Shown in pieces: positions 3,001-64,000 of a stretch of DNA of 64,000 bases. This DNA is from a virus. Its lineage: Duplodnaviria; Caudoviricetes. Position 1 is the first letter of the stretch. Each line of letters begins with the position of its first letter. The stretch is taken from the IMG/VR virus record IMGVR_UViG_3300020434_000055. One strand, 5' to 3'. A program made the translations under genes and the position numbers. A model generated the notes under the pieces. It was not told the DNA's origin and ran no database searches. It saw nothing but the letters and a program-made list of their open reading frames with translations.

Positions 3001-6000
3001 ACCTTTAGCTCCTACATAAGCAACAGTTTCATCACCTACTTTTCTTATTTCTATTTTACTACCTAATCCTAAATTATCTTTAGTATCAGGTACTATGTAA
3101 GTACCATTGTATTCAAAGTCTCCACTTGTACCAAGTTCATAAATTACATATGCTCCTTGATTACTTTTAGCACTTTTATATCCGTCTCCTGCAATAATGT
3201 TGTATACTTGAAGATAATTTTTATTAGTATTTCCAGGTATTTCAGCAGTTCTTGCCACACCATCTAATGTAGATTCATCCCAGAACCAATATTCTAAATC
3301 AAAATGTCTTACTTCTATATCTGCTAAAGTTGTTGATTTTAATGTTTTTCCAGAATCAAATACAAAGTATGGTCCTCCTTGACCTAATGTATCTATTTGA
3401 GCTTCTTTAAGAACTCCTACTTTTCTATTTGGTGTTCCTAATAAAATTATATCAGTTGGAGCACCTGCATCACTTCCTTGAAAGAAAATGCCTGAAGCAT
3501 TTTTAAGAAATAATTGTAATCTATTAAATTCAATTGTTTTAACATAAGTGACTTCTGCTGTAGATCCTGATGTATCATCTTTTATATTATCGCCGACTAT
3601 TGGTACATAAAAATTACCTAAATTATCTGCTTGAGCATCTACAGTTATCCAACCATTCCATACGTCATTTATTGTAAGCTCTTTATTAATGTCAGCAAAA
3701 TCTAATCCCATTATACTTGGAGAAAAAACACTATTTTGATTATCTCTTAAAGTGTTTAACCAAGCATTAACAGTATTTCCAGCAACTTTGCCAGTCATAA
3801 CTCCTGGGCCTACTCTTAAAAAGAATCTTGAATCGGTAATTAAACCTGTAACAACAGGCTGACCTTGAATACTATAAGTTTTTTCATAAGATAAAATTCC
3901 TATTTCTGATGTTCTTACAACACCTGGTGAAGGAGTATTTTGAGATATTCCTAAAACATTAAAGTATTCATTTAGTGTTCTAGTAATTCCTTGTCTAATA
4001 ATATCTTGTACTACAAGATACGGGTTTGTTTCAGCACCTAAACTAGTATTAATAGTTGCCCCAACATCTATTTTCCACCAGCCACCTACGTAAGCATAAT
4101 CTTCTGTGAATGCTCGTATATAAGTTCCTACATTTATAGATCCTGCTTTAAGACTATCTGTAGTTGAAAAATTACCTTTAACATTTTTTAAGTAAATTAT
4201 AGATTGTGTACCTTCTTGATGCACATATGCTACTGTACCATCTGCTGTATCTGTACTAACAGTCTCGCCTCCATAAAGGCTGTTTAAAGTATCTGGTACA
4301 TTTAAAATATCATCTATTTTTTCTTGAATTACTTGTGACCCAGTAAGTACTGCTGTTACGTTTGCATCTACGCCATTAAATGGTTCATACGCAGAACCAC
4401 TTGGTGGTACAAAAGTATTAAATCCATTCCATTTTAATTGTAACTTATCTCCTACTGCTGTACCTTGATATTGATCTAATGATGCTCTAATTAATAAGTG
4501 ATCTGTAGTAGTATTTGGAAAAATATAATTTCCTACAATGATACTAGATATTGGGTCATAATTTCCTGTATTTGAATCATACGTTGATTCTTTTGCATGA
4601 GCATGACTGTCAAACGTTGTAAAGTCTACTGAAGGATCTTCAGCTAATATCGGATTTACAACTCTCCATAATTGTTGTTTATATTTTACTATGTCTCCTA
4701 TGACATATGTATTTGCTACATCATAATCTCCTTTGTAATAAGTTTTAACATTACTTGCCTCTGGGGCACCGACCATAAGATATTTTCCATCAGAACTTAT
4801 TGCTACGCTAGATCCGTATTTGCTACCAGCATCGAATACTTCTAAACTATTCAATATAGAATCTTGTGTTGGACAATCAATTGCTTGAACTAAAGTTGCT
4901 GTTGTGGCATCACTTGGTCTTTTAAAAATATAAACTTTTCCATCAGATTCATTTGGAGCACCTACTACTAAAATAGTATTTGAATCATTAGCTGACAATA
5001 CTTGGCCAAACAAAGTGTTTACTGTTACATTAGGATTAGATATTTCTTGGTGTGTTTTATATACAAATTTATTATTTAATACAGCCCATTTTTCATTGTC
5101 ATTTTGATCTACCCAAAATTTCTCATTACTTTGTAAACCACTGTCATTAATTTTTGAATTTATATCACTAATAGTTGCAATTCTTGATGATACAAATCGA
5201 CTTATATATCCTACTGCAGGATCTACAGCTACAACTGATTCGTTCTCATCACAAGTTATTACATTTAATTCTACTTTGTTTGCTTTTAAAGTATATGTAG
5301 AGTCACCTACTCTAATAGTAAAAATTTCACCAACAGTTATTTCTGCATTATTTTGTGTGGTAACTTTAACTAACTTGTTACTATCTAAAGTAATTAAAGT
5401 TATTTTTTGTTTAGAGTTAGAAAACTTAACAACATTCCAAGTATTATTATGATCACCTATCCATATATAGTTTCCTTCTTTTAATACAGAAGTATCCATA
5501 GTTAAAATATCATCATAATTTGCTATAGTAAAATCTATATCACTAGGATCTACTGGACCTGCAGTACGCAAATACGTATCTTTAATATATTTGGTCGGGA
5601 AAGGCGTATGTGCATAACCTTCAGGTTTAAGATATGTTTCATTATCTTTTTGTCTTATAACAAGATCTGTAGTTGTTGAATCTATGGTGTTAGTTAATTC
5701 AATAGGTTGTGGATTAAGTCTAAATTTACTTTCATCTAAAATATATTCTACTTCTTCAAATCCTTGAGTTACACCATAATGCCCTTTTCTTATAGCCCAT
5801 TCTTCATAAAATTCTACGCTATCTTTATCTGCACTACTTAATGCATCAAATAATTTAGTTAATGAATTTTTAGTTCCTTTGTCTTGAATGAATCCTTGAT
5901 AAAATTTATATTGAGATACATCATCATTAATTATATTTTGTAAGTATTGTCTTTTTTGATATCCTATTAAATGTTGTGCCATTCTTTGTTGACTTGAATC

Positions 6001-9000
6001 AAAATTATCTGTATCCAAATCATAAAAATCTGCAAATTGATTAGTTTTGTATTCAAAATTAGGTAATAAATCTGCTTTAGGTCTACCTTCTAATTTGCTC
6101 CATTCCTCATCATCAAAAGTAGCTGATCCTTTTATTTTATTTCTAGCAGTATAATAATATTCTTTATGTTTAACTAAATCACTCATTGCATAATCAGTAT
6201 AAGGTACCCAATCAACAACTAGAGCGTGGTCGTAAATAAATCCTGGAATGTTTAATCCACCTGTCCAGTCTTCTGTAATATAACCAAGAATTTTTATTCT
6301 ATCTTGTCTATAACCTGTCTCTGGATTATATATTGTATCATTGAATACAGTTGTATTATCAATTAATGCAACGTGTTCTTTTTGAACTAAAGGAATCTTA
6401 GCATAATAAATTCCATTAATAGTATTTTTAGTTAACAATTCATAGTCATTATATTTTTTTACTACTCTTATAAATTCTTTATCAAATTTAGTTCCATCTT
6501 CTTTAAATAATGTATAGTCATAAAAATTATCAAATACATTATCTCCTACACTATATTCTGTTTTTAACGTTAATTTATTAGCTAATGGACTTAAAGATAT
6601 AACTGATCCTTCTCCCCAATTCTGTGTAGTCCAGAATAAAAATTCTTTAGCACTCAATTGCCAATTAGCAACAGAACCTATATCACGATTAAATTCATTA
6701 AATTGAAAACCTTTAGATTCAAGATATTTTCCATAACCTAAAATAAAATCAACAACATCTTGAATTTTTCTAAACAAAGTACCATATGCAATTTCAGATG
6801 TAGTAGTTTCGAAATTTTGAGAAAATCTTGCTGAAGATCCTCCTTCAACAGGTAACTCTTTTAATAAAATAAATTTTGTATCATCAAATGTTGTACCCGA
6901 CATATGTTGTTCTTTTGTAGAATAAAAATCATTACTAAATTTTGCAATCATTCCTACATCATATCTTTTATTTTCTGCCCAATTAACATAAGAAGCACTT
7001 ATACCTCCTATTGTAAATTCTGGATCCATTGATTTTGTTATAGGTGCAAAATATTTAAGAGTTGGATCATTTTTATCATAACCTTTAATTGTAAATCCAG
7101 ATGTTAATTTTTCTATAATCAATCCACTGTAAGTTAATATATCTATAGGAGAACTTGTATTATAAATGATTTGATAATTTTCATCTGGTACAAATACGCT
7201 ACCTGTATTTGTAGGAGATTTACTATCTAATAATAATTTAAATTTGTCTTTTTTAGTATAACCACGAATTTTAAATCCTAATTGATTAGTAATTTTTTTA
7301 ACATTATTTCTGTAATCAGTATAATTTGTTAATACGTCAGTTTCAATGTATTCAAAAATATAATTTATTAAACCTGATGTATGCACTACTGTTTTATCAT
7401 TAACTGAATTTGGAAATTTTAAATTAGCTAATTTAAATCTAGAACTTGTATCTTTATATACAATTTGTTTTGCACTATTTCTAATTACTCTTGATCTATC
7501 AAATCCTAAAGACATAACATGACTTGGTTGATTTACTAACCATGCTGTTATAATTGCAAAAGGGTAATCCGAACTTCTTCTCCAAGCATTTTCCACTGGA
7601 GAATGATCACCAAATTTAAAAGGATTTCGAGTAAATTCTTGAACATACTCCTGAGCAAAATTACTATCAAGAGGACTTATAACTTCTCCTGAAGAATTAA
7701 CAGGAATATGTTTTAATAAATCTGGTCTTTTATATTCATCTTTTATTACAACATTTTTATCAGGTTCTCTAATTACACCGTCTTGTAAATCTTGCCATAA
7801 AATTAAATTATCACTAGTATAAGGAGCTGACCCATATGTAGTGTCCCACCAAGTTGGTTTTCCCACAAAACCTAACATCTCCCAAGGATGTGTATGTGGT
7901 CTATCTGTATCATAAGCGTGTTTATAAACACCTCTCCAGTGTCCTAACAAAGGATTTCCATCTGGACTAGACATATATCCATAATTGTAAGTAAACGAAT
8001 CAGTTCCACTATGATATGAATTTGTCGTATAATCGATATTATCTACATATGATAACCAATTAGTAAAATCTATTAATAAACTTTTATTGATAGCACTTAA
8101 AGAATAATCTGTTTTTCTGTATTCTCCTGGAACAAAATCAGTTAAATTAAATATTTCTGTATCATATTTTACTTTAATATTATTGTAAATTCTTTTTTCT
8201 AATTCTAATAATAAATCATCTCTATAATCATCATATGCAACACTAATATTTCCATCATGACCTTGAATCACATTGACTGGAGTTATTGCTGTAGTGTCAC
8301 TATATTTTGATGGTATAAATTTAGGATATAAACCTAATTTTGTTGGTGTTGCAGGAATAAAGCAACCATTTGTTGATTCATATTCAACAATAGTAAGAAT
8401 ATCATTTAATATTAAAGTAGATTTAATTTTTATAAATCCTTCTGTTGTAAATGTGTAATCTGTATCATGCAATAATTGTGCATCATTTTTATAAATTAAT
8501 ATAGATTTTGAACTTAATTCATCTAATGAAAATACATTTGTTAATTGATAATATGGATTACCTGGATCTGTAATTGTAAATGTTGTTTTCTTTGCTCCAC
8601 CATATCCTATCATATCTGTAAAATAAAAAGGATATGTAATTTTTCTTTTATTTTTATTCAGTCTTTTAATTACTTCATCGACCATTTGAGCTGGTGTGCC
8701 GTCAAATCCTAAATTTTTTGCTTGTTCAACAAATAACCTTTTAAATTTTGTGTATTCATGTTGAGAATGTCTTATTGCTTTAACAATATTGGCTTCTTTA
8801 TTACAAAGATGATATAAAGCAAGATTTATTAATCCAGAATGTTGTAGAAATTTTCTTCCATATTTAGATACATTACCTAAATCTCTTAAATTATTGCTAC
8901 CTGGAAACGATCCTTCAAATCCTGGAACTTCATCTACCATTGAATTTACGTGATCTCCTACTTGGCCTAAAGTAAATGTAGACAATTTATCATTTAAAGG

Positions 9001-49730: not shown

Positions 49731-52322
49731 ATGACAAAACAGATAATACAAGATGGTATAATACCTAATGACGGTCAAGGTGACAGTCTTAGAACAGGTG
49801 CACAGAAAATAAACACAAATTTTGATGAGTTATATACTGCACTAGGAAATGGTAGTGCTTTAACTTCTATTTCAGATAATTTATTTAATTCAACAGGTTC
49901 TAACAAGATTGCGTTTCACTTTGATACGCTAGGAGATTTACCAGATGCCACAACCTATCACGGAATGTTCGCCCATGTACATAGTGAAGGTACAGGTTAT
50001 ATGTCTCATGCAGGAGCCTGGGTTAAACTCGTAGATGCAAATAAATCTATTGATGCTTTAGCAGATGTTAATACAACTAACACTACACCAACAGATGGAC
50101 AAGCATTACTTTGGGATAACGCAAATAGTTATTGGAAACCAGGTGACGTACAAGCATCAGGTGGTGGAACTTTTGTTTCATTATCAGATAGTCCTTCTAC
50201 TTTTTCTGGAGCAAATAATAAATTTGTAACAGTTAATAGTGGAGCAAGTGCTATAGAATTTACAACTCCAGTTATTGATAAAATTGGAGATGTAGATACA
50301 ACTACAACACCTCCAACAGCTGGTCAAGTATTAAAATGGAATGGATCTAATTGGGTTCCGGCTCAAGATTCTACATCAGGTGGAAGTGGATCAGACGCTG
50401 ACACATTAGATGGTTTAGATAGTCCATATTTTTTAGATTATAATAATTTTACTAATAAACCAACATCTTTTGGTAAATCTTTTAACGTATCTGCCGCAAC
50501 ATATACAGCCGCGTCAGGTATAATGCAATTAACTATTGGAGCACACGATTTAGTAATTGGTGACAATATTAAAATTGCTCCATTAAGTTTAACATTTTCT
50601 TGCGACATGGATAATCATGCTACTAATACGCAATATCCAAGAGCAACTGGAAGTGCCGCACCTGGTGGAATGGATTATGTATATAATAAACCAGTTGCAA
50701 TTACGGGTGCAGATGCAACAACAATTACAATGAATGTTGGAACTGGAAATCTTAAATCTTTTACTCCAACAGCCGCAATATACACACCAGCAACAGGTGT
50801 AATGGAATTAACTATTGGTACACACAATTACATAGCTGGTAACAAAGTTAGTATTACTACAGAAAGTTTAACTTTCACTTGCGCCTTAGATGGTCATTCA
50901 TCACAAAAAGCATATCCAAGAGCAACAGGTTCAGCCGCTCCAGGTGGAGCTGACTATGCCTACGAAACACTACAAACTCTTACATCAGTAAGTGCAACAA
51001 CAATTACAATGAATGTTGGAATATCAAGTAATACATCTGCACATACATTTGTAAGTGCTTCTGCTGGTGCTATAACAAGTTCAAATATTCATACATTTAT
51101 AAGTGCTACTTCTAATTGTATAACATTTGCAAAAAGATTTACAGAGTTATCAGATGCTCCATCTAGTTTTAGTGGATATGGAGATTATTATCTTAAAGTA
51201 AACACTGGTGGAACAGCTTTAGAACTTGTAACAAAACCTGGCGGAGCAACTAATTTATCAGGACTTTCTGATATAACAACATTAGGAAATTATTACAATA
51301 CATCAAATGCAGTATATACACCTGCGACAGGAGTAATAGTATTAACTATTGGACAACACAATTTACAAGTTGGTCACAATGTAAAAATTGCTTCAAACAG
51401 TTTAACATTTACTTGTGCAATGGATAGTAATGCAACAGAACATACATATCCAAGAGGAAGTGGATCAGCATATGCAGGTGGAAAAGATCCTGCTTATACT
51501 TCAGCAAGTACAATTACGGCAATAACTGCAGATTCAATTACTGTAAATGTTGGAATATCAAGTAATACAACAACACACACATTTATAAGATCTACTGAAA
51601 ATAATATATCAGTAGTTGATCAATCTTACAGTACATCAAATGCAACATATACACCTAACACAGGACAATTGCAATTAACTATCGGAAACCATGCCATACA
51701 GGCTGGACATTCTGTTATGATTGCCGCAAATAGTTTAACATTTACCTGCGCCTTAGATAGTAATACTACACAATCAACTTATCCAAGAGCAACTGGATCA
51801 GCGGCACCAGGTGGAATGGACTATGCTTACGAAAGACCTGTATTAATTACAGCCGTAAGTGCGACAACAATTACAATGAATTGTGGTGTATCAAGTAATA
51901 CATCAGCACATACATTTGTAAGTGCTGTTGCAAATAATATAAAAGTTGCACCAACACAAGGTGATTCATTGTACTTCAATGGAGTATCATGGTTAAGAAG
52001 AAACGGACCAGTATCAAGATATGAAATAATAAATGACAGTAGCAATAACTTTACTTGGACAGGACCTGGTTTAACATCAGCAACTAATGATCCAGTAATG
52101 TATATGAACAGAGGTCATACATATTATTTGATTAATCAAGCAGGAAGTTCTCATCCTTTAGAAATAAGAACTAGTAATGGTGGTAGTGGATATACATCAG
52201 GAGTAACAGGTAGTCAATCAGGTACACAAATATTTGAAGTACCAATGGATGCACCTGCTACATTGTATTACCAATGCACAATTCATTCTGCAATGGGTAA
52301 CACAATTAACATATTGAGTTAA
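49731..52322 (+). CDS. Baseplate-anchored fibre: gp9/gp10-type N-terminus, four repeat modules, C-terminal cupredoxin-like domain (863 aa)
   Basis: NDGQGDSLRTGAQKINTNFDELY is the T4 gp9/10/12 N-terminal motif; modules at 50478-51941; C-terminal SHP...YYQCTIHSAM. Confidence 0.75.
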   Translation: MTKQIIQDGIIPNDGQGDSLRTGAQKINTNFDELYTALGNGSALTSISDNLFNSTGSNKIAFHFDTLGDLPDATTYHGMFAHVHSEGTGYMSHAGAWVKLVDANKSIDALADVNTTNTTPTDGQALLWDNANSYWKPGDVQASGGGTFVSLSDSPSTFSGANNKFVTVNSGASAIEFTTPVIDKIGDVDTTTTPPTAGQVLKWNGSNWVPAQDSTSGGSGSDADTLDGLDSPYFLDYNNFTNKPTSFGKSFNVSAATYTAASGIMQLTIGAHDLVIGDNIKIAPLSLTFSCDMDNHATNTQYPRATGSAAPGGMDYVYNKPVAITGADATTITMNVGTGNLKSFTPTAAIYTPATGVMELTIGTHNYIAGNKVSITTESLTFTCALDGHSSQKAYPRATGSAAPGGADYAYETLQTLTSVSATTITMNVGISSNTSAHTFVSASAGAITSSNIHTFISATSNCITFAKRFTELSDAPSSFSGYGDYYLKVNTGGTALELVTKPGGATNLSGLSDITTLGNYYNTSNAVYTPATGVIVLTIGQHNLQVGHNVKIASNSLTFTCAMDSNATEHTYPRGSGSAYAGGKDPAYTSASTITAITADSITVNVGISSNTTTHTFIRSTENNISVVDQSYSTSNATYTPNTGQLQLTIGNHAIQAGHSVMIAANSLTFTCALDSNTTQSTYPRATGSAAPGGMDYAYERPVLITAVSATTITMNCGVSSNTSAHTFVSAVANNIKVAPTQGDSLYFNGVSWLRRNGPVSRYEIINDSSNNFTWTGPGLTSATNDPVMYMNRGHTYYLINQAGSSHPLEIRTSNGGSGYTSGVTGSQSGTQIFEVPMDAPATLYYQCTIHSAMGNTINILS
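50478..51941 (+). repeat. Four copies of a ~105-aa coding module (one nested, two tandem)
   Basis: Consensus YTPATGxMxLTIGxH...IAxxSLTFTCxxDxxxxxxxYPRATGSAAPGGxDYxY...TTITMNVG...HTFVSA. Copy 1 is 50478-50756 plus 51081-51125 around copy 2 (50757-51080); copy 3 is 51291-51611; copy 4 is 51624-51941. Confidence 0.9.
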
Positions 52323-55700: not shown

Positions 55701-58700
55701 GTTTCCCTATTGAAACTTTACTTAATGCATCTACAAAATATTCTATAGAACCTAGAATTACATTTACAGATGGACCTTATAATAAATCTACTCCTTCTTT
55801 TGGAACTACAGGAGAAATGTTAGTATCTGCATCAGGAAGAGTTGGAGCATCTGATGTTACAGTATTACTTGGTAATGGTAAAGGAAATAGAACAACAGAT
55901 GGTTCAAACTGGACTGCTGTTAGTGGAGTTCCTTTAGCTGACTGGATCGGAATGACTAGAACAGAAAATTATTTTATAGCAGTAGCACAAGATGGAACAA
56001 CTGCTAGATCCGCCGACGGTGCAACATGGACTAATATCACAACAAGTCAATATAGTACAACAGGAGGAACATATACACCATCTACAGGAGAATTAGTATT
56101 AGAAATTGGAGCACATGAAGTAGGTCAGACTTATAGTACAACAAGTGCAACATATACACCAGCAACAGGTGTAATGGAATTAGGTATAGAAAAACATACT
56201 CCTGGAGCACAATTTACTCCATCAGCCGCAACATACACTCCGGCAACAGGAGTATTAGAATTAACTATAGGATCACATAGTTTAGTAGCAGGTAATAAAG
56301 TTAAAATTGCTCCAAATAGTTTAACATTTACTTGCGCCTTAGACAGTCACGCTACTGAAAAAACATATCCAAGAGCAACTGGAAGTGCCGCACCAGGCGG
56401 AGTAGATTATTTCTACGAAAAAGCAATAACTCTTACGTCAGTAGGTGCAACAACAATTACAATGAACGTTGGTGATACTAGTATATCAGGCAATAACTCA
56501 ACACACACATTTGTAAGTGCTACTTCTAATTCTGTAACAGAACAAGTTATTGGAGCACACAATTTACATATTGGTAATGAAGTTAAGATTGCACCAACAA
56601 GTTTATCTTTTACTTGTTCTTTTGATGATCATACTGCTCAAACAGCCTATCCAAGAGCAACTGGATCTGACGCACCGGGTGGTTACGATTATTATTATTA
56701 TAGCCCAGTAGAAATTACAGCCACAACAGCATCAACAATTACAATGAATGTTGGTAAAGGAAATATTAAAAATTATACTGTAACAGACGCGGCTTATACA
56801 CCAGCAACAGGAGTAGTAATATTAACTATTGGTGATCATAATTTAGTAGCTGGTAATCATATTGACATTGCTCCATTAAGTTTAACATTTACTTGTGCCC
56901 AAGATAGTCATGCAACAGAACATAGCTATCCAAGAGCAACAGGTTCAGCCGCTCCAGGTGGTTATGATTATTTTTATAATAAACAAATAGAAATTATTTC
57001 AGCAGGTGCAACAACAATTACTGTAAATGTTGGAATATCAAGTAATACAACAGCACATACATTTATAAGTGCTCTTGCTGACGGTGTATCAAATTCAAAT
57101 ACACATACATTTGTAACTGCTCTTGCAAATAATATAACATTAGCAGGTCAATTTGTTATGATTGCTCCAAACAGTTTAGGTTTTACTTGTTCTTTTGATA
57201 ATAATGTATCAACTCATACATATCCAAGAGCAACAGGATCAGCGGCGCCAGGTGGAATGGATTATTTTTACGATACACCAGTTGAAATTCAAAGCAGAAC
57301 AGCAACAACAATTACAATGAATGTTGGAAAAGGAAATATTAAAAGTTACACTCCAACAGCCGCAGTATATACACCTGCATCAGGAGTAATGGTATTAACC
57401 ATTGGAGCACATAGTTTAATAGCTGGTAATTATGTTGATATTGCTACAGACAGTTTAACATTTACTTGCGATCAAGATAGTCATGGTAGTAATCATACAT
57501 ATCCAAGAGCAACTGGAAGTGCCGCACCTGGTGGTTATGATTATTATTACGAAAAACCAATAAGAGTTGAGTCAGTAGGTGCAACAACAATTACTCTAAA
57601 TGTTGGTATATCAAGTAATACAACAGATCACTTATTTGTAAGTGCGACTGCTGATTGTGTAACAAATTCAAATGCACACACATATGTAAGTGCTACTGCG
57701 AATAATGTATCTTATTATTCTGTTCCTGTTGATGTAATGTCAGGTATTGCATATCGTAATGGAACTGTAATAATTGCATCAGAAACAGGAATGGTTTATA
57801 AATCAACTGATGACGGTTCTAGTTTCTCAGCTGATCAATTAGAAGTTTATGATGGTTCAACATCGATATTCACATATATTGCCGCTGGAAATGGATTATG
57901 GATAGCAGGTAATGGAACTGGAAAAACTTATGAAAGTCAAGATGAAGGAACAACTTGGTCATTAGGTTCTAATATTGGAGACAAATTAATGGATATTAAC
58001 GGTGTTCTTAAATCTGTTCACAGATATGATGTAACATCATTAATATTTGGTGGTGGTAAATTTGTAGCAACAGTAATAGACGCTCCAGGAGATGAAAGTA
58101 CAGTTATTAGTAAATTTATGATATCAAATGCTACAGGACAAGTTGGAGCTTCTGAACAAACAGCTACAAGATGGACAGAAAGTGAAACACCTCCACACGC
58201 AGGACCTTACATTGGAGTTGCATATACTGAAGGTACATATGTTGCAATATCGGCCGGTGGAGATCTTGCTTACAGTTATGACGCTTGGTCTTGGAAAATA
58301 TTAGATTCTGCATTAACAGGAACGTTTTCAAGTATAGGTAGTGGTAAAGCTGGCGGTGGACATTTTGTTCCTTTACAAACTGGTAGTACCGGTACAACAT
58401 ATTTGTTAAGAAAAGGTTCAAGACCTTTAGCAAGAGCAATTACAAGTTCTCAAGTAATTACAAAATTACAAATTTTATCTCCAGGTAGTGGATATTCAAC
58501 TGCACCAGCAGTTACAATAACTGACAATAAAGCTACAACTGATGCAAGTCTTGAAGCAAGAATATTTGATGGAGTATTAGGTCAACCAGAATTTTCAAAT
58601 AGAGGTTCAGGATTTATGAATGTATCTGCAACATTAACAGGAGATGGTTTTGCAGATGAATATCAAATTGGTCCTTATCTTCAAGTAAAAGATATGAACG

Positions 58701-59581: not shown

Positions 59582-62500
59582 ATGGCTGAGTTTAAACTAG
59601 GTAGAATTAGATTTGTTTGGAAAGGTTCTTGGGTAACTTCAACATCATATTACGTCGATGACGTTATAAGATATGGTGGAAGAACCTATAATTGCGTATC
59701 AAATCACATTGCTAACGCAGATTTCCAAGTAGACTTATCTGCTGAAAACTGGCAATTAATGTCCGATGGTCAAGAATGGAAAAGTGACTGGTCATTAAAC
59801 ACAGTTTACAAACCAAATGATGTTGTAAAATATGGTGGTTACATTTATATTTGTAACACAGGACACACATCTGCCGCAACGGTAGAACTTGGCTTAGAAA
59901 ATCATCAATCTTATTGGGATTTATTTGTAGAAGGATTTGATTGGAAATCTGATTGGACAATTTCTACTAGATATAAAGTAAATGATTTAGTAAAATATGG
60001 TGGATCAGTTTATCTTTGTATAGAAGAACACACATCAGATACAACAACAGCAGTTGGCTTAGAAGGAAAACAAAGCAAATGGGAAATTTTTGGAAAAGGT
60101 TTTGTTTGGTTAGGCGACTGGGCAATTAATACTAGATACAGAGTAAATGATACAGTTAGATACGGTGGACAAATTTATATTAACATAACTGGACATACTT
60201 CAGCGGCAACTATCGCAGATGGTTTAGAAGCCAATCAAGCACAATGGCAAGCCTTACACAAAGGAATAGAATATTTAGGTGCTCACGCGGCAACAACAAG
60301 ATATAAAGTTAATGATGTAGTAAAATATGGTGCAAATATTTGGATTGCTACAGCGGCACATACATCAACAACTTCTTTAGCGGCTGACGAAGGTAATTGG
60401 TCAGTTTTAATTCCAGGTTTAGAATTTGAAGATACTTGGGATTCTTCAACACAATATCAACCAGGTGACTTTATTACTTACGGTGGATATAGTTATGTTT
60501 CAAATACAAATAACGTTAATAAAAATCCACCTCTTAATTCAAGTGATTGGACATTATTTGTAACAGGATTTAATTTAAGAGGCGACTATAATGCCGTTAC
60601 TGCATACAAACAAGGTGACGTTGTTAGAGTTGGAGGTTTTACATATCTCGCAATTGCAGACACAACAGGTAATAAACCACCAAGTGTTTTACACTGGGAT
60701 AAACTTAATGAAGGTTTATATTGGAAAGGTAATTGGGCAAATGCAACTGAATTCGACAGAGGTGATATAGTAAGAGGAACTACTAACACTAATACAAGTT
60801 ATATTTGCGTAACAGGACACACATCAAATAATGTTGGACCAAGTACAATTAATCAACCAGACTATCCACCAGGAGCAGGTGTCGATACTAGTGTTTGGTC
60901 ATTATTAGCATCAGGAACAGAAAACGCTGTACTATCAGTAAAAGGTGATCTTTTAATTTATGGTCAATCAGGACCAGCTAGATTGCCAATTGGTAAAGCA
61001 GGACAAACTTTAATTGTAAACTCAGCAGGTGATCTTCCTGAATGGGGATACTTTGGAGCTGTAGATCAAGTTTATTATGTTTCAGAAACAGGAACAGATG
61101 TTCCAGCACCTGATTCAGGACCAACACTTGACAAACCTTGGAAAACTTTAAGATATGCTTTATGGCAAATTGAACAAGGACCAAGAAATCCTCAAGGAAC
61201 TTACATGATGGAAAGAAACAAAGCATTTATTCAAGCAGAAATTATAGCTTGGATTAACGCTCAAATTTCTGGAAACATTTCACCTTTCACATCAGGTTAT
61301 ACATACGACGCGGCAAAATGTACAAGAGACTCTGGATTAATGATTGATGCAGTTCTATGGGATTTAAGACATGGTGGAAATGAAAAATCAAGATATGCAA
61401 CACTTAGAATTTCAACTCAAACAGAATTTGTAAATAATTCTGCTGAATTACAAGCCTATCTTACTAGATTAGTTTATATTACACAACAAGTTACAGCCAA
61501 CAATGCAGGTTATTCTGCAGGACAAGGTACAATAAATCAAGTTGTTGATAACAATTATACTGCGGAGCCGGCTGTTAATGGAGAAATTGCAAGTTATATA
61601 CAAATTGCAATAGATTGTCTTGCGGCAGGTAATACATCTGGAGTACCTATAGAAGAAATAGCACAAACTACATTATTTGTTAAAACAGGAACATACGAAG
61701 AAGTGTTACCTCTTTCAATAAGAAAAGGAACAGCACTAGTAGGAGATGAATTAAGATCAACAGTTATTAAACCAGCGGGACAACAATCTTCAGTAAGCGA
61801 CACAGCATTTACATTACAAGGTATTGGTAGAATGCAGGCAATTTTGTCTGACATAGTTCAGAACGTTGCTGTAACACCAACACCTGTAGGAGGTGTTACA
61901 TTTTTAACAACACCTGCACCAGATTTAGGTTTTGTTAATGGAACTTACACTAACGTTGCAGTAACAGGTGGAACTGGAACAGGATGTACAGTAGATTGTA
62001 CTGTTTTATCATTTGCAATTACGGCTTTGTCTATAAATTCACCAGGACAGAATTATGTAGTTTCTGATGCATTAACAATTCCAGCGGCAACAATTGGAGC
62101 AGATGGAGTTTCAACTGTAACAGGAGTTACAACAGGAAATAATTTAACTCAAAATACAGATCTTCCTGTAGGTTCAGCGGCGGCAGGTACAGCGGCGGCG
62201 GCAATTGGACAAAATATTATAGATCATATAACTTACAAAGTTAATGCAACTGGATCTGATCCAGCATTAACTGGTGTTAATAGTGCAGATTCAACTGCAG
62301 GTTTCACAGATGCAAGATTAAGACTATTAGCAAATAAAGAATTTATTGCATTAGAAGCCGCGGAGTTTGTACAAAGAGCAAATCCAACTCATAGTAATTT
62401 TAAAGAAAAATGTTTGAATGATATTAGAATATATGTTCAAACAATTATGGACGACTTAGAATATACCGGCAATTATAAATCATTGAAAGCCTCAGATGCC

Positions 62501-64000
62501 TACATTAATTCTAGACTTGCAAAAGGTTCTAGTGCAAATGATATGTTCTATGTTAGAAATGCTTCAGGAATAAGAAATGTAACAGTAGAAGGTTTAATAG
62601 GAACATTAGGTACTACTCAATTCTCTACAACAGCGGCAACATACACACCAGCAACAGGTGTAATGGAATTAACTATTGGATCACATAGTATTGCTGTTGG
62701 TGAAAAAGTAATGATTGCTTCAAATAGTTTAATCTTTACTTGCGATCAAGATACTCACGCTACTCAACATAGCTATCCAAGAGCAACTGATCCTTATTAC
62801 AATAAAGAAATTTTAGTTACAGGTGCGACAGCGACTACAATTACAATGAATGTTGGAATATCAAGTAATACAACAGGACATACATTTGTAATGGCTACTG
62901 AAGATAATGTAACATTAGCTACTGCAAATGAATATGGAACAAAAAGACCAACAGGTGGAGCATATGTATCATTAGATCCAGGTTGGGGACCAGCACATGA
63001 AGAAGTATGGATTAAGTCTAAATCACCTTATATCCAAAATGTAACAACTTGGGGAGAAGGTTGTGTTGGAGTAAAAGTAGACGGTGCATTACACGATGGT
63101 GGTTTTGATTCTATCGTTGGAAATGACTTTACACAATTATGCGATAATGGTATTGGTGCTTGGATTACAAATTTAGGTAGAGTAGAACTTGTATCAGTAT
63201 TTTCTTATTATGCACACATAGGTTACCTTTGTGAAAATGGTGGAAAACTTCGTTCTACAAACGGAAATTCATCTTATGGTGATTTTGGTTGTGTTGCAGA
63301 AGGAACAGATGCAAGTGAAACTCCAATAACAGCAACAATAGATAATAGAAGTACAGATGCAGTTATTGACAATGTTATAACAGATGCTAATCAAATATTA
63401 GCATTTGAATATGATAATGCAGGTAGACAATATAGTAATGCAACATTTACTATATCTGGACCTGGTTATGGAATTGCTGGAACAACTCCAACTTATAATA
63501 CTGGTGGTGTTTACAAAATTAGATTAATAGAAACTAATCAAGAAGTAAGTGATCAAGGTGGATCAACTTACATGACTGCACTTAATACTGGACAAACAGG
63601 TGACACTACATCAATTACTATAGCTAACGCAGATAGTAATGCCTCAGGGGCTTATCCTGGAATGGCAATATGGATTGTAGAAGGAAAAGGTGTAGGACAA
63701 TATGCATATATTAATACTTACAATGCAACAAGTAAAGTTGCAACTGTTAAAAAATATTCAAATGCCGCAGACGGTTGGGAAAGACTTGGCGGTTTAGCGG
63801 TAGAGGCAACATTAGACAATACAACAAAATATAGTATTGAACCGAGAGTAGTTATTGCGGCTCCTCAAGATGATGGAAGTACAGCAGTTAGACAAGCAGT
63901 TGCAAGAGCAGTTGTTACAACAGAAAAAATTTCCAAAGTAAAAATTATAGATTGCGGAGCAAGTTATACTTCAGCACCTACTGTAACATTTACTGATCCT
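59582..64000 (+). CDS. Paralog of the 2273-aa fibre protein, truncated by the right edge (at least 1473 aa)
   Basis: MAEFKLGRIRFVWKGSW versus MADFKIDRIRFRWRGDW; same repeat set and beta-helix (NGNSSYGDFGCVAEG); TAAATA at 59551-56; absent from the ORF track, consistent with no stop in the window. Confidence 0.85.
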   Translation, partial: MAEFKLGRIRFVWKGSWVTSTSYYVDDVIRYGGRTYNCVSNHIANADFQVDLSAENWQLMSDGQEWKSDWSLNTVYKPNDVVKYGGYIYICNTGHTSAATVELGLENHQSYWDLFVEGFDWKSDWTISTRYKVNDLVKYGGSVYLCIEEHTSDTTTAVGLEGKQSKWEIFGKGFVWLGDWAINTRYRVNDTVRYGGQIYINITGHTSAATIADGLEANQAQWQALHKGIEYLGAHAATTRYKVNDVVKYGANIWIATAAHTSTTSLAADEGNWSVLIPGLEFEDTWDSSTQYQPGDFITYGGYSYVSNTNNVNKNPPLNSSDWTLFVTGFNLRGDYNAVTAYKQGDVVRVGGFTYLAIADTTGNKPPSVLHWDKLNEGLYWKGNWANATEFDRGDIVRGTTNTNTSYICVTGHTSNNVGPSTINQPDYPPGAGVDTSVWSLLASGTENAVLSVKGDLLIYGQSGPARLPIGKAGQTLIVNSAGDLPEWGYFGAVDQVYYVSETGTDVPAPDSGPTLDKPWKTLRYALWQIEQGPRNPQGTYMMERNKAFIQAEIIAWINAQISGNISPFTSGYTYDAAKCTRDSGLMIDAVLWDLRHGGNEKSRYATLRISTQTEFVNNSAELQAYLTRLVYITQQVTANNAGYSAGQGTINQVVDNNYTAEPAVNGEIASYIQIAIDCLAAGNTSGVPIEEIAQTTLFVKTGTYEEVLPLSIRKGTALVGDELRSTVIKPAGQQSSVSDTAFTLQGIGRMQAILSDIVQNVAVTPTPVGGVTFLTTPAPDLGFVNGTYTNVAVTGGTGTGCTVDCTVLSFAITALSINSPGQNYVVSDALTIPAATIGADGVSTVTGVTTGNNLTQNTDLPVGSAAAGTAAAAIGQNIIDHITYKVNATGSDPALTGVNSADSTAGFTDARLRLLANKEFIALEAAEFVQRANPTHSNFKEKCLNDIRIYVQTIMDDLEYTGNYKSLKASDAYINSRLAKGSSANDMFYVRNASGIRNVTVEGLIGTLGTTQFSTTAATYTPATGVMELTIGSHSIAVGEKVMIASNSLIFTCDQDTHATQHSYPRATDPYYNKEILVTGATATTITMNVGISSNTTGHTFVMATEDNVTLATANEYGTKRPTGGAYVSLDPGWGPAHEEVWIKSKSPYIQNVTTWGEGCVGVKVDGALHDGGFDSIVGNDFTQLCDNGIGAWITNLGRVELVSVFSYYAHIGYLCENGGKLRSTNGNSSYGDFGCVAEGTDASETPITATIDNRSTDAVIDNVITDANQILAFEYDNAGRQYSNATFTISGPGYGIAGTTPTYNTGGVYKIRLIETNQEVSDQGGSTYMTALNTGQTGDTTSITIANADSNASGAYPGMAIWIVEGKGVGQYAYINTYNATSKVATVKKYSNAADGWERLGGLAVEATLDNTTKYSIEPRVVIAAPQDDGSTAVRQAVARAVVTTEKISKVKIIDCGASYTSAPTVTFTDP
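62618..62914 (+). repeat. Single copy of the coding module inserted in a beta-helix region
   Basis: QFSTTAATYTPATGVMELTIGSH...LIFTCDQDTHATQHSYPRATDPYY...HTFVMATEDNVT, flanked by AACATTAG at 62602-09 and 62911-18. Confidence 0.88.

Follow-up and report, generated by a model that had tools for sequence, protein, structure and literature searches.

How does a complete folded domain come to lie, in frame, within a loop of an unrelated domain, and how much of that event can be read from the joint? This question is raised by a 64,000-nucleotide (nt) stretch of DNA from a tailed virus (Caudoviricetes; IMG/VR record IMGVR_UViG_3300020434_000055), hereafter called the window, which has a G+C content of 33% and which PHROG matches mark as the structural region of a marine, T4-like myophage. 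The giant tail-fibre-like gene P0001 carries, within its C-terminal conserved beta-rich domain, a beta-barrel module of 103 residues that its paralog P0002 lacks at the matching position. We propose, with a probability of roughly 0.68, that the barrel was copied in frame into a fibre loop by overlap-joined recombination and kept by selection, and that filled and empty alleles were then exchanged by homologous recombination.

A 309-nt in-frame unit bounded by a short direct repeat

P0001 and P0002 have in common N-terminal CBM_5_12 repeats and the conserved C-terminal beta-rich domain. Across the insert P0001 reads ...EGLIGTLG / TTQFS...EDNVTLA / TANEYGTKRPTGG and continues as TANEYGTKRP..., while at the matching position P0002 reads ...QGKTGGLTAANEYGTKRTTGG (in longer form ...QGKTGGLTAANEYGTKRT...) with no module in between. 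The insert is one whole beta-barrel module in its short-loop form. An 8-nt word, AACATTAG, is repeated directly at a spacing of 309 nt (103 codons), and a direct-repeat search of the window extends the match to 12 of 13 nt (AACATTAGGTACT versus AACATTAGCTACT). Both copies are read in the same frame, xxA ACA TTA Gxx, and encode T-L-(G/A); owing to the repeat, the boundaries of the insert can slide left by up to 10 nt. An initial annotation, made from the letters of this DNA alone, had described the 8-nt repeat and stated that deletion of one repeat-to-repeat unit restores GTLATANEYG. We found the repeat at the coordinates given there (Table 1), and P0001 minus one repeat unit aligns to P0002 without a gap.

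Filled and empty alleles coexist among close orthologs

In order to follow the insertion through related phages, we searched IMG/VR and obtained nine orthologous loci (L001-L009), which together with the window fall into three lineages. Lineage A consists of the window and L001 (99% protein identity to the window) and is filled. Lineage B, at ~79% protein identity to the window, is likewise filled in L002, L007 and L008 and includes L003, a filled locus with an internal deletion that is described below. Lineage C (L004, L005, L006 and L009), also at ~79% protein identity to the window, is empty. There are thus five intact filled alleles and four empty ones. Full-length filled orthologs come to ~2026 amino acids (aa); read from stop to stop, the full-length protein has 2031 aa when filled and 1928 when empty, a difference of exactly 103. 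The empty site reads GGA ACA TTA GGT TCT GCA (G-T-L-G-S-A) and holds a single AACATTAG; in the filled alleles, without exception, this word lies at each of the two junctions, 309 nt apart. The claim that this is a true filled-versus-empty site, with a clean in-frame insertion of one module, is borne out by these orthologs with and without the module.

We then fetched 80 further host-family loci by profile search, keeping 80 of 233 relatives found. Outside lineages A and B, all fetched host-family loci (~70 more-distant homologs) are empty at this position, which we call site 1, as are 80 of 80 fetched P0002-type paralog loci at the matching site. Most empty homologs read G-[T/S/A]-L-G followed by x-A-N-x-[Y/F]-G-T-K-R, with GTLG in 31, GSLG in 17 and GALG in 6; in 55 of 75 the four residues before xAN are GTLG, GSLG, GALG or GVLG. 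Because the distant homologs and all paralog-type loci are empty, the empty state is, as read from these alignments, ancestral and the insertion derived. The conservation of G-[T/S/A]-L-G in empty homologs likewise indicates that the left T-L-G is native to the host, so that the left copy of the repeat is the host gene's own. The comparison of ortholog junctions that had been suggested with the initial annotation therefore gave an ancestral empty state and an exact 103-residue step, rather than an ancestral module lost with ragged boundaries.

The exceptional lineage B locus, L003 (IMG/VR contig 3300003937_000005, positions 5700-6060), differs from L002 by 1 nt over ~6 kb outside a 233-nt out-of-frame deletion. 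This deletion removes module residues 27-103 together with the right junction, joins CATAGT to TGCAAAT with no overlap and splits the fibre gene, and L003 represents a defective variant or, alternatively, a misassembly. The breakpoint on the left lies just past T-I-G-S-H-S, the hairpin that hosts nested module copies in P0002.

Filled and empty states lie on different local haplotype blocks

Between lineages A and B the module has a ratio of nonsynonymous to synonymous substitution rates (dN/dS) of 0.32, and its dS of 0.45 compares with 0.51 in the upstream and 0.27 in the downstream flank. Because the module dS is near that of the flanks and dN/dS is low, we conclude that a single old insertion has diverged together with its flanks under selection.

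Gene-wide, lineages B and C are the closest pair, with nucleotide identities of 87-99% compared with 70-91% for A versus either of them, and with 926 informative sites supporting B+C, 191 supporting A+B and 198 supporting A+C. A flank tree built from ~1.5 kb, leaving out 360 nt around the site, gives ((B,C),A) with support 100/99, and the approximately unbiased (AU) test rejects a clade of filled alleles (p 0.009). This is contrasted by the region from ~225 nt upstream to 90 nt downstream of the site, where A+B is supported by 27 of 65 informative sites versus 191 of 1315 gene-wide. A local tree of 360 nt gives (C,(A,B)) with support 91/93, although the AU test stops just short of rejecting B+C (p 0.088).

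The sequence that adjoins the insert on its right is of paralog type in A and B, and in the window nearly identical to P0002 (Table 1), whereas empty lineage C and the outgroups carry the native type. Of the first 60 nt on this side, A has 57 in common with its own paralog, and B matches C at only 47. Ectopic recombination with the paralog may have played a part when the module was inserted. Because C is native-type and B paralog-type right of the site, C is no simple excision derivative of a B-like allele. Filled and empty states occupy different local haplotype blocks. The paralog-like tract begins 6 nt past the right repeat of the insertion.

A locally divergent patch also accompanies the indel at a second insertion site of the same protein (site 2, described below). 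Here filled L044 and empty L018 are 97-100% identical over most of 5 kb, and their identity falls to 81-90% over ~600 nt adjoining a 333-nt indel. These patterns appear to be explained most simply by one insertion and subsequent block transfer of filled and empty alleles between backbones by homologous recombination. T4-like phages replicate through recombination, and exchange of alleles between backbones is thus expected. The stretch recurs with little change in 20 public marine metagenome runs (10 studies), and Logan contigs of three runs span both junctions in the filled form. None of these shows a 309-nt skip, though contigs cannot show rare excision; the joints that did turn up stem from other module copies, in arrays.

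The same data bear on a different history, in which the module was ancestral to A, B and C, and lineage C lost it by precise deletion between the AACATTAG copies through slippage or recombination. The empty orthologs nearest the window would then be secondary, and the repeat would have acted in deletion rather than insertion. The flank tree is compatible with such a loss, as it places empty C within the filled group, and a history of one gain and one loss needs no more steps on it than any other. Moreover, a crossover at AACATTAG(G/C)T reproduces the C sequence exactly, deletions within the module do happen, as L003 shows, and the empty forms of site 2 branch within the filled ones and retain a six-residue loop that is a possible scar. 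A precise excision does not account, however, for the 13 differences between C and B in the 60 nt right of the site, where C is native-type and A and B are paralog-like. The enrichment of A+B-supporting sites near the insertion and the local pairing of A with B also argue against it, as does the lack of any contig with the 309-nt skip in four runs, within the limit that contigs are blind to rare forms. We consider loss in lineage C unlikely, while granting it a real share of the probability.

The joint is consistent with overlap-mediated recombination

The initial annotation had cautioned that AACATTAG also occurs elsewhere and that the repeat may be partly chance. The word is indeed common, with 9 copies on the + strand of the window versus ~2.7 expected from composition, and all six copies within the three fibre genes use the identical, favoured codons ACA TTA for T-L. 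One of them, at 51278, encodes part of the T-T-L-G that precedes the third module copy of P0003, and at 57136 the identical 8-mer lies where another P0002 module copy ends as ...N-N-I-T-L-A. In addition, eight families of short direct repeats are present within 521 nt around the insertion site. Yet in 400,000 simulated random in-frame insertions into the same coding DNA, junction homology of at least 8 nt arose at a frequency of only 8.3e-4. This simulation tests for a match at the exact indel spacing and not for word frequency, and it was chosen after the repeat had been seen. On the strength of this low frequency, we regard the repeat as exceeding chance expectation and as unlikely to be chance, with a p-value that is post hoc.

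The module family ends in a conserved ...N-[V/I]-[T/S], and the copy at 57136 ends ...NNITLA, which argues that at least V-T of the right repeat copy is native to the module. With the left copy native to the host and V-T of the right copy native to the module, the joint resembles the overlap left by illegitimate recombination or template switching and, as judged from these residues, does not look like a duplication from a staggered enzymatic cut. Two mechanisms had been put forward in the initial annotation, target-site duplication and microhomology-mediated recombination. The latter fits best, while the former is disfavoured by the overlap of the right copy with the module end and by the boundaries, which are without terminal inverted repeats (only weak pairs were found, internal or offset).

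We therefore favor a model in which one module copy would have been duplicated from another fibre-gene copy into the loop between G-T-L-G and x-A-N of the C-terminal domain. The joint would have formed by illegitimate recombination or template switching at the short overlap A-ACA-TTA-G, a word that happened to exist both in the target loop and in the 3' end of the donor module. In this scheme synthesis would exit the host after ...AACATTAGGT, copy one module period and re-anneal through ...AACATTAGCT at the same host word, and the overlap would consequently remain at both flanks of the insert. The product, being in frame and foldable, would have been retained under purifying selection, with the barrel probably acting as one more surface or ligand-binding knob. 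There would have been a single origin of the filled allele, after which filled and empty alleles would move between related phage backbones via homologous recombination in the flanks. The SbcCD-like and RusA-like genes of the window represent general recombination machinery that would perform such exchanges, and the module array of P0002 is one possible pool of donor sequence in the same genome. If the joining was overlap-mediated, the donor is expected to end in ...GTAACATTAGC beside unrelated sequence.

Several points weigh against this model. The donor end in ...ACATTAG is one that we infer, from the module consensus ...N-[V/I]-T and from the one copy whose end, ...ITLA, contains this 8-mer; no close donor copy was found, as identity to the inserted copy is no more than 55-65% in the nearest copies elsewhere. 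The L-A that follows V-T is not conserved among module copies, because of which the repeat may instead be a duplication of the host's own 8 nt. The p-value of the repeat is post hoc, as stated above, and T-L in favoured codons is a common word in this DNA. No interpretable junction repeat is present at the older insertions, sites 2 and 3. The local tree that pairs A with B is moderately supported (AU p 0.088) and was computed on a window picked after the pattern had been seen, and gene conversion from the paralog, which is clearly active here, could mimic the A+B relationship. Finally, an AlphaFold2 model of the host domain together with the module has a predicted local distance difference test score (pLDDT) of 47.5, unusable for the host fold, for the placement of the barrel or for how close its termini lie.

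Some of these points would be met if the repeat were a coincidence of codon usage, with T-L written as ACA TTA, and the insertion had been joined with no overlap at all. The excess of the word, which in fibre genes always encodes T-L, the crowd of short direct repeats around the site and the lack of anything clear at the junctions of sites 2 and 3 all suit such a coincidence. It would nonetheless have to produce at least 8 nt at the exact indel spacing, rare as that is in the same codon-biased DNA, together with a match reaching 12 of 13 nt in the window and exactly one copy at the empty site, and we give it little credence.

A more far-reaching proposal is that the module is a 'plug-in' cassette, the conserved coding ends of which bias template switching to loops encoding words like T-L-G. 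Were this true, it would provide a semi-programmed way of adding, nesting and removing binding domains in fibre proteins, so that host range would be diversified domain by domain, unlike in point-mutation systems of the kind of diversity-generating retroelements. The presence of the module in at least three loops of one protein, its self-nesting and its repeated gain and loss fit this proposal and fit chance insertion plus selection equally; we hold the cassette idea to be very doubtful.

The least tenable explanation is a selfish, self-mobilising coding element with an enzyme-made 8-bp target-site duplication, or an intein-like element removed from the protein, which we dismiss since, although the direct repeat has no mismatch over its 8 nt, empty sites hold it once and the module occurs at several unrelated sites, the boundaries have no terminal inverted repeats, the module encodes nothing beyond a 103-aa structural barrel, it is under purifying selection as a conserved building block of arrays in 527 protein clusters, and its own consensus accounts for the right-hand T. 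A PHROG scan of the 26 largest open reading frames (ORFs) of the window, with the 3763-aa, the 1146-aa and the smaller ORFs unscanned, found no transposase, integrase or homing-endonuclease family, and within this set the suggestion of a selfish cassette in the initial annotation finds no mobilising enzyme. The suggestion of protein splicing fares no better. The insert starts T-T-Q (or G-T-T) and ends ...N-V-T-L-A followed by T; it has no Hint/intein Pfam match, no C-terminal His-Asn and no Cys/Ser/Thr after an Asn, and it is modelled as a beta-barrel. A transposon and a retroelement were also considered and rejected, no defining feature of either being present.

The module recurs at other sites of the host protein

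In other lineages a single module interrupts the host protein elsewhere. Site 2 lies ~35 residues downstream of site 1, between W-I-x-x and G-G-R-S-P-Y, and is filled in 13 loci (L042-L045, L049, L051, L060-L063 and L086-L088). Site 3 lies ~350 residues upstream, directly before ...P-A-E-I-V-A-N-D-T-L-F-V-K-T-G, and is filled in 7 loci (L023-L025, L029 and L031-L033). A more-distant homolog, L064, has two module copies. The host-domain tree calls for at least 2 state changes at site 1, 3 at site 2 and 1 at site 3. The insertions at sites 2 and 3 are independent of that at site 1, and there is evidence here for repeated gain, loss or exchange of the module. With at least two other loops of the host protein, tandem and nested arrays and the Prochlorococcus phage protein P-SSM4 gp7 among its locations, the module does occur in unrelated contexts, as had been proposed at the outset.

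Empty forms that are nested among the site-2 carriers keep a six-residue loop, A-L-N-G-A-G, that never-filled lineages are without. This loop may be a scar of module loss.

The junction of site 2 has at most 6 nt of homology at the indel spacing, and its flanks have diverged. At site 3 a 9-nt word, AGTGCAACA (S-A-T), recurs at a spacing of 291 nt (L023 positions 1433-1441 and 1724-1732; also in L025, L029, L031 and L033) and joins the left host flank to the conserved ...F-V-S-A-T-S motif of the module. We give it no weight as a junction repeat: removal of the unit fails to give the empty relatives, many spacings were scanned and the relatives are too diverged. Direct repeats at nested junctions within P0002 (GGTCA, and ATTGGAGCACA at another unit) were left unused, as homology among module copies explains them.

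The host domain itself has no Pfam match even at an expectation value (E) of up to 5 and no PDB match to its profile, and Atlas pointed no more than weakly to DUF1565 and PF12708, families with the pectin-lyase fold. When compared with P0002, both P0001 and its orthologs contain an extra block of ~250-270 residues (window 61700-62530, P0001 residues ~740-985), bounded by ...L-R-S-T-V-I-K-P-A-G and ...D-M-F-Y-V-R-N. Given this block, the host domain tolerates other large insertions too.

The barrel module: sequence family and predicted structure

A hidden Markov model (HMM) built from the copies in the window finds four modules in P0003, about five full and several split ones in P0002 and one in P0001. 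The array in P0002 can be parsed into N-parts, complete copies and C-parts, such that barrels are nested in loops of other barrels. An exhaustive HMMER search detected the module in 527 cluster representatives, mostly as multi-copy arrays, with up to 24 copies per protein and carrier proteins of up to ~7000 aa. It matches PHROGs 5342, 701, 1276 and 18802. Marine T4-like phages employ this small, independently folding barrel repeatedly, in baseplate as well as fibre proteins. A long array is carried by P-SSM4 gp7 (7312 aa), to which the P0001 copy has a DNA match of 72% over 158 nt.

The core motifs of the family, Y-x-P-x-T-G, T-I-G-x-H, F-T-C-x-x-D, Y-P-R, N-V-G and H-T-F, are all present in the inserted copy, and columns Y11, G16, G23, H25, F42, C44, D47, Y55, P56, R57, N80, G82 and H90 are invariant or nearly so. 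Among these, His25, Cys44, Asp47 and His90, together with the Y-P-R motif, stand out in the module alignment (window 62612-62920). Metal sites and fixed binding pockets typically have residues of this kind, and we regard the present set as a putative site of either sort.

The initial annotation was correct that the inserted copy is without the GSAAPGG loop found in the longer form. This absence was rejected as a mark of deletion in the inserted copy, as the short form is the norm of the family (315 short versus 7 long among 581 domain hits).

The closest match that we found to the inserted copy, at 62% identity, is to residues 824-896 of P0067, a 1857-aa representative. P0067 is an unrelated giant protein, and the matching residues make up the C-terminal half of one of its module copies. 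The two share D-P-Y-Y-N-K-x-I-L-x-T-G...I-T-M-N-V-G-I-S-S-N-T-T, and the P0067 copy may be kin of the donor lineage.

The module has no Pfam family, even at E up to 5, and a sequence search of the PDB gave no match. An AlphaFold2 model from an 18-copy alignment is a compact all-beta domain (pLDDT 96; predicted template modelling score 0.86). With this model Foldseek returned nothing from the PDB at E of 0.001 or better, and its weak top matches are tailspikes with inserted barrels (7w1c, 8bke, 4hiz and 4y9v). The best matches by VIA-align are the E1 FCCH barrel (Z 8.5) and the nested barrel of the phi92 endosialidase (Z 8.4), values near 8 that by the tool's own warning may reflect a common arrangement only. 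We take these two matches as resemblance and not as membership.

Genomic setting

P0003, P0002 and P0001 are fibre-like genes that follow one another on the + strand (Table 1). The CBM_5_12 repeats of P0001 are Pfam matches, and the protein also matches PHROG tail-fibre families. Elsewhere in the window, PHROG matches identify head genes (portal, prohead protease and major head protein), baseplate hub and wedge proteins and a late sigma factor. The recombination genes mentioned above, also identified by PHROG match, are an SbcCD-like nuclease and a RusA-like resolvase; the former consists of SbcD-like and SbcC-like genes of the T4 gp47/gp46 type at 22327-25895.

Table 1. Coordinates in the window of the fibre genes, the insertion and the features that bear on it.
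Feature	Position	Strand	Remarks
P0003	49731-52322	+	863 aa, fibre-like
Module copies in P0003	50500-51950	+	four copies, by HMM
P0002	52712-59533	+	2273 aa, fibre-like, paralog of P0001
Empty homologous site in P0002	54800-54871	+	reads ...QGKTGGLTAANEYGTKR...
Module array in P0002	56051-57712	+	full copies, and split copies enclosing others
P0001 (host gene)	59582-64000, open at window 3' end	+	>1472 aa, giant tail-fibre-like
Left AACATTAG copy	62602-62609	+	codons G-T-L-G, host-native
Inserted 309-nt unit	62612-62920	+	P0001 residues T1011-A1113; by ortholog and paralog alignment and module HMM match
Right AACATTAG copy	62911-62918	+	codons V-T-L-A; V-T from the conserved ...N-[V/I]-[T/S] end of the module
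Paralog-like tract	62924-62968	+	44 of 45 nt identical to P0002 54827-54871

Comparison with known systems

The locus provides a usable natural case for the study of module gain and loss in the receptor-binding proteins of abundant ocean phages, and its natural, isogenic-like pairs with and without the module lend themselves to asking how the barrel affects adsorption or host range.

Barrels inserted into beta-helix tailspike depolymerases have been described in KP34 gp57 (residues 103-203), LKA1 gp49, phi297 gp61 and AP22 gp54, where the KP34-type barrel completes an intra-chain sugar pocket and horizontal acquisition has been proposed (PMC10653864). The module described here is likewise an all-beta barrel of ~100 residues that interrupts a conserved tail-protein domain, and tailspikes of this type are among its top weak Foldseek matches (7w1c and 8bke at E 0.08, 4y9v at E 0.23; template modelling score 0.41 or less). 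There is no sequence relationship between the two, and the KP34 host is a right-handed beta-helix, whereas the fold leads for the host domain here are weak. Unlike the KP34-type barrel, the present one also occurs in long tandem and nested arrays, and its filled and empty alleles coexist among close relatives.

A second likeness is to endosialidases. The barrel of the K1F endosialidase has a sialic-acid binding site and is a hotspot of host discrimination (PMC12632334). That of the phi92 enzyme (PDB 4hiz, residues 256-338) is nested in a beta-propeller and superimposes on the module over 78 residues with a root-mean-square deviation (rmsd) of 2.1 A. Sequence identity to the endosialidase barrel is 14%, its Z near 8 may be a common arrangement, and the module here has no known ligand. 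The top structural match, E1 FCCH (Pfam PF16190; PDB 9mc4, 4p22 and 2v31; rmsd 2.5 A over 76 residues), is again a barrel that interrupts another domain, and PF16190 is found on 28% of the members of one Atlas cluster of the same fold. Its biology is unrelated and, as the module itself has no Pfam match, the resemblance is one of fold only.

The process can be compared with the mosaicism of tail fibres, in which illegitimate recombination makes joints at short homologies and homologous exchange then follows; in T4, deletions and duplications form at short direct repeats. Our locus is similar in the short overlap at the joint, the lack of a dedicated enzyme among the ORFs scanned, the selection of in-frame products and the homologous spread of alleles. 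It differs in that a single domain has entered a loop of another domain, rather than a whole gene or C-terminal tip having been swapped, and in that empty and filled states are both kept among orthologs that are 79-93% identical. We conclude that this is ordinary recombination-driven domain shuffling and not a self-moving element, and that it provides no evidence for a new kind of mobile element. Domain insertions have mostly been inferred from anciently diverged proteins with eroded joints. What is particular here is that both states and the joint itself are preserved in close orthologs, and that the module recurs in several loops of its host and inside itself.

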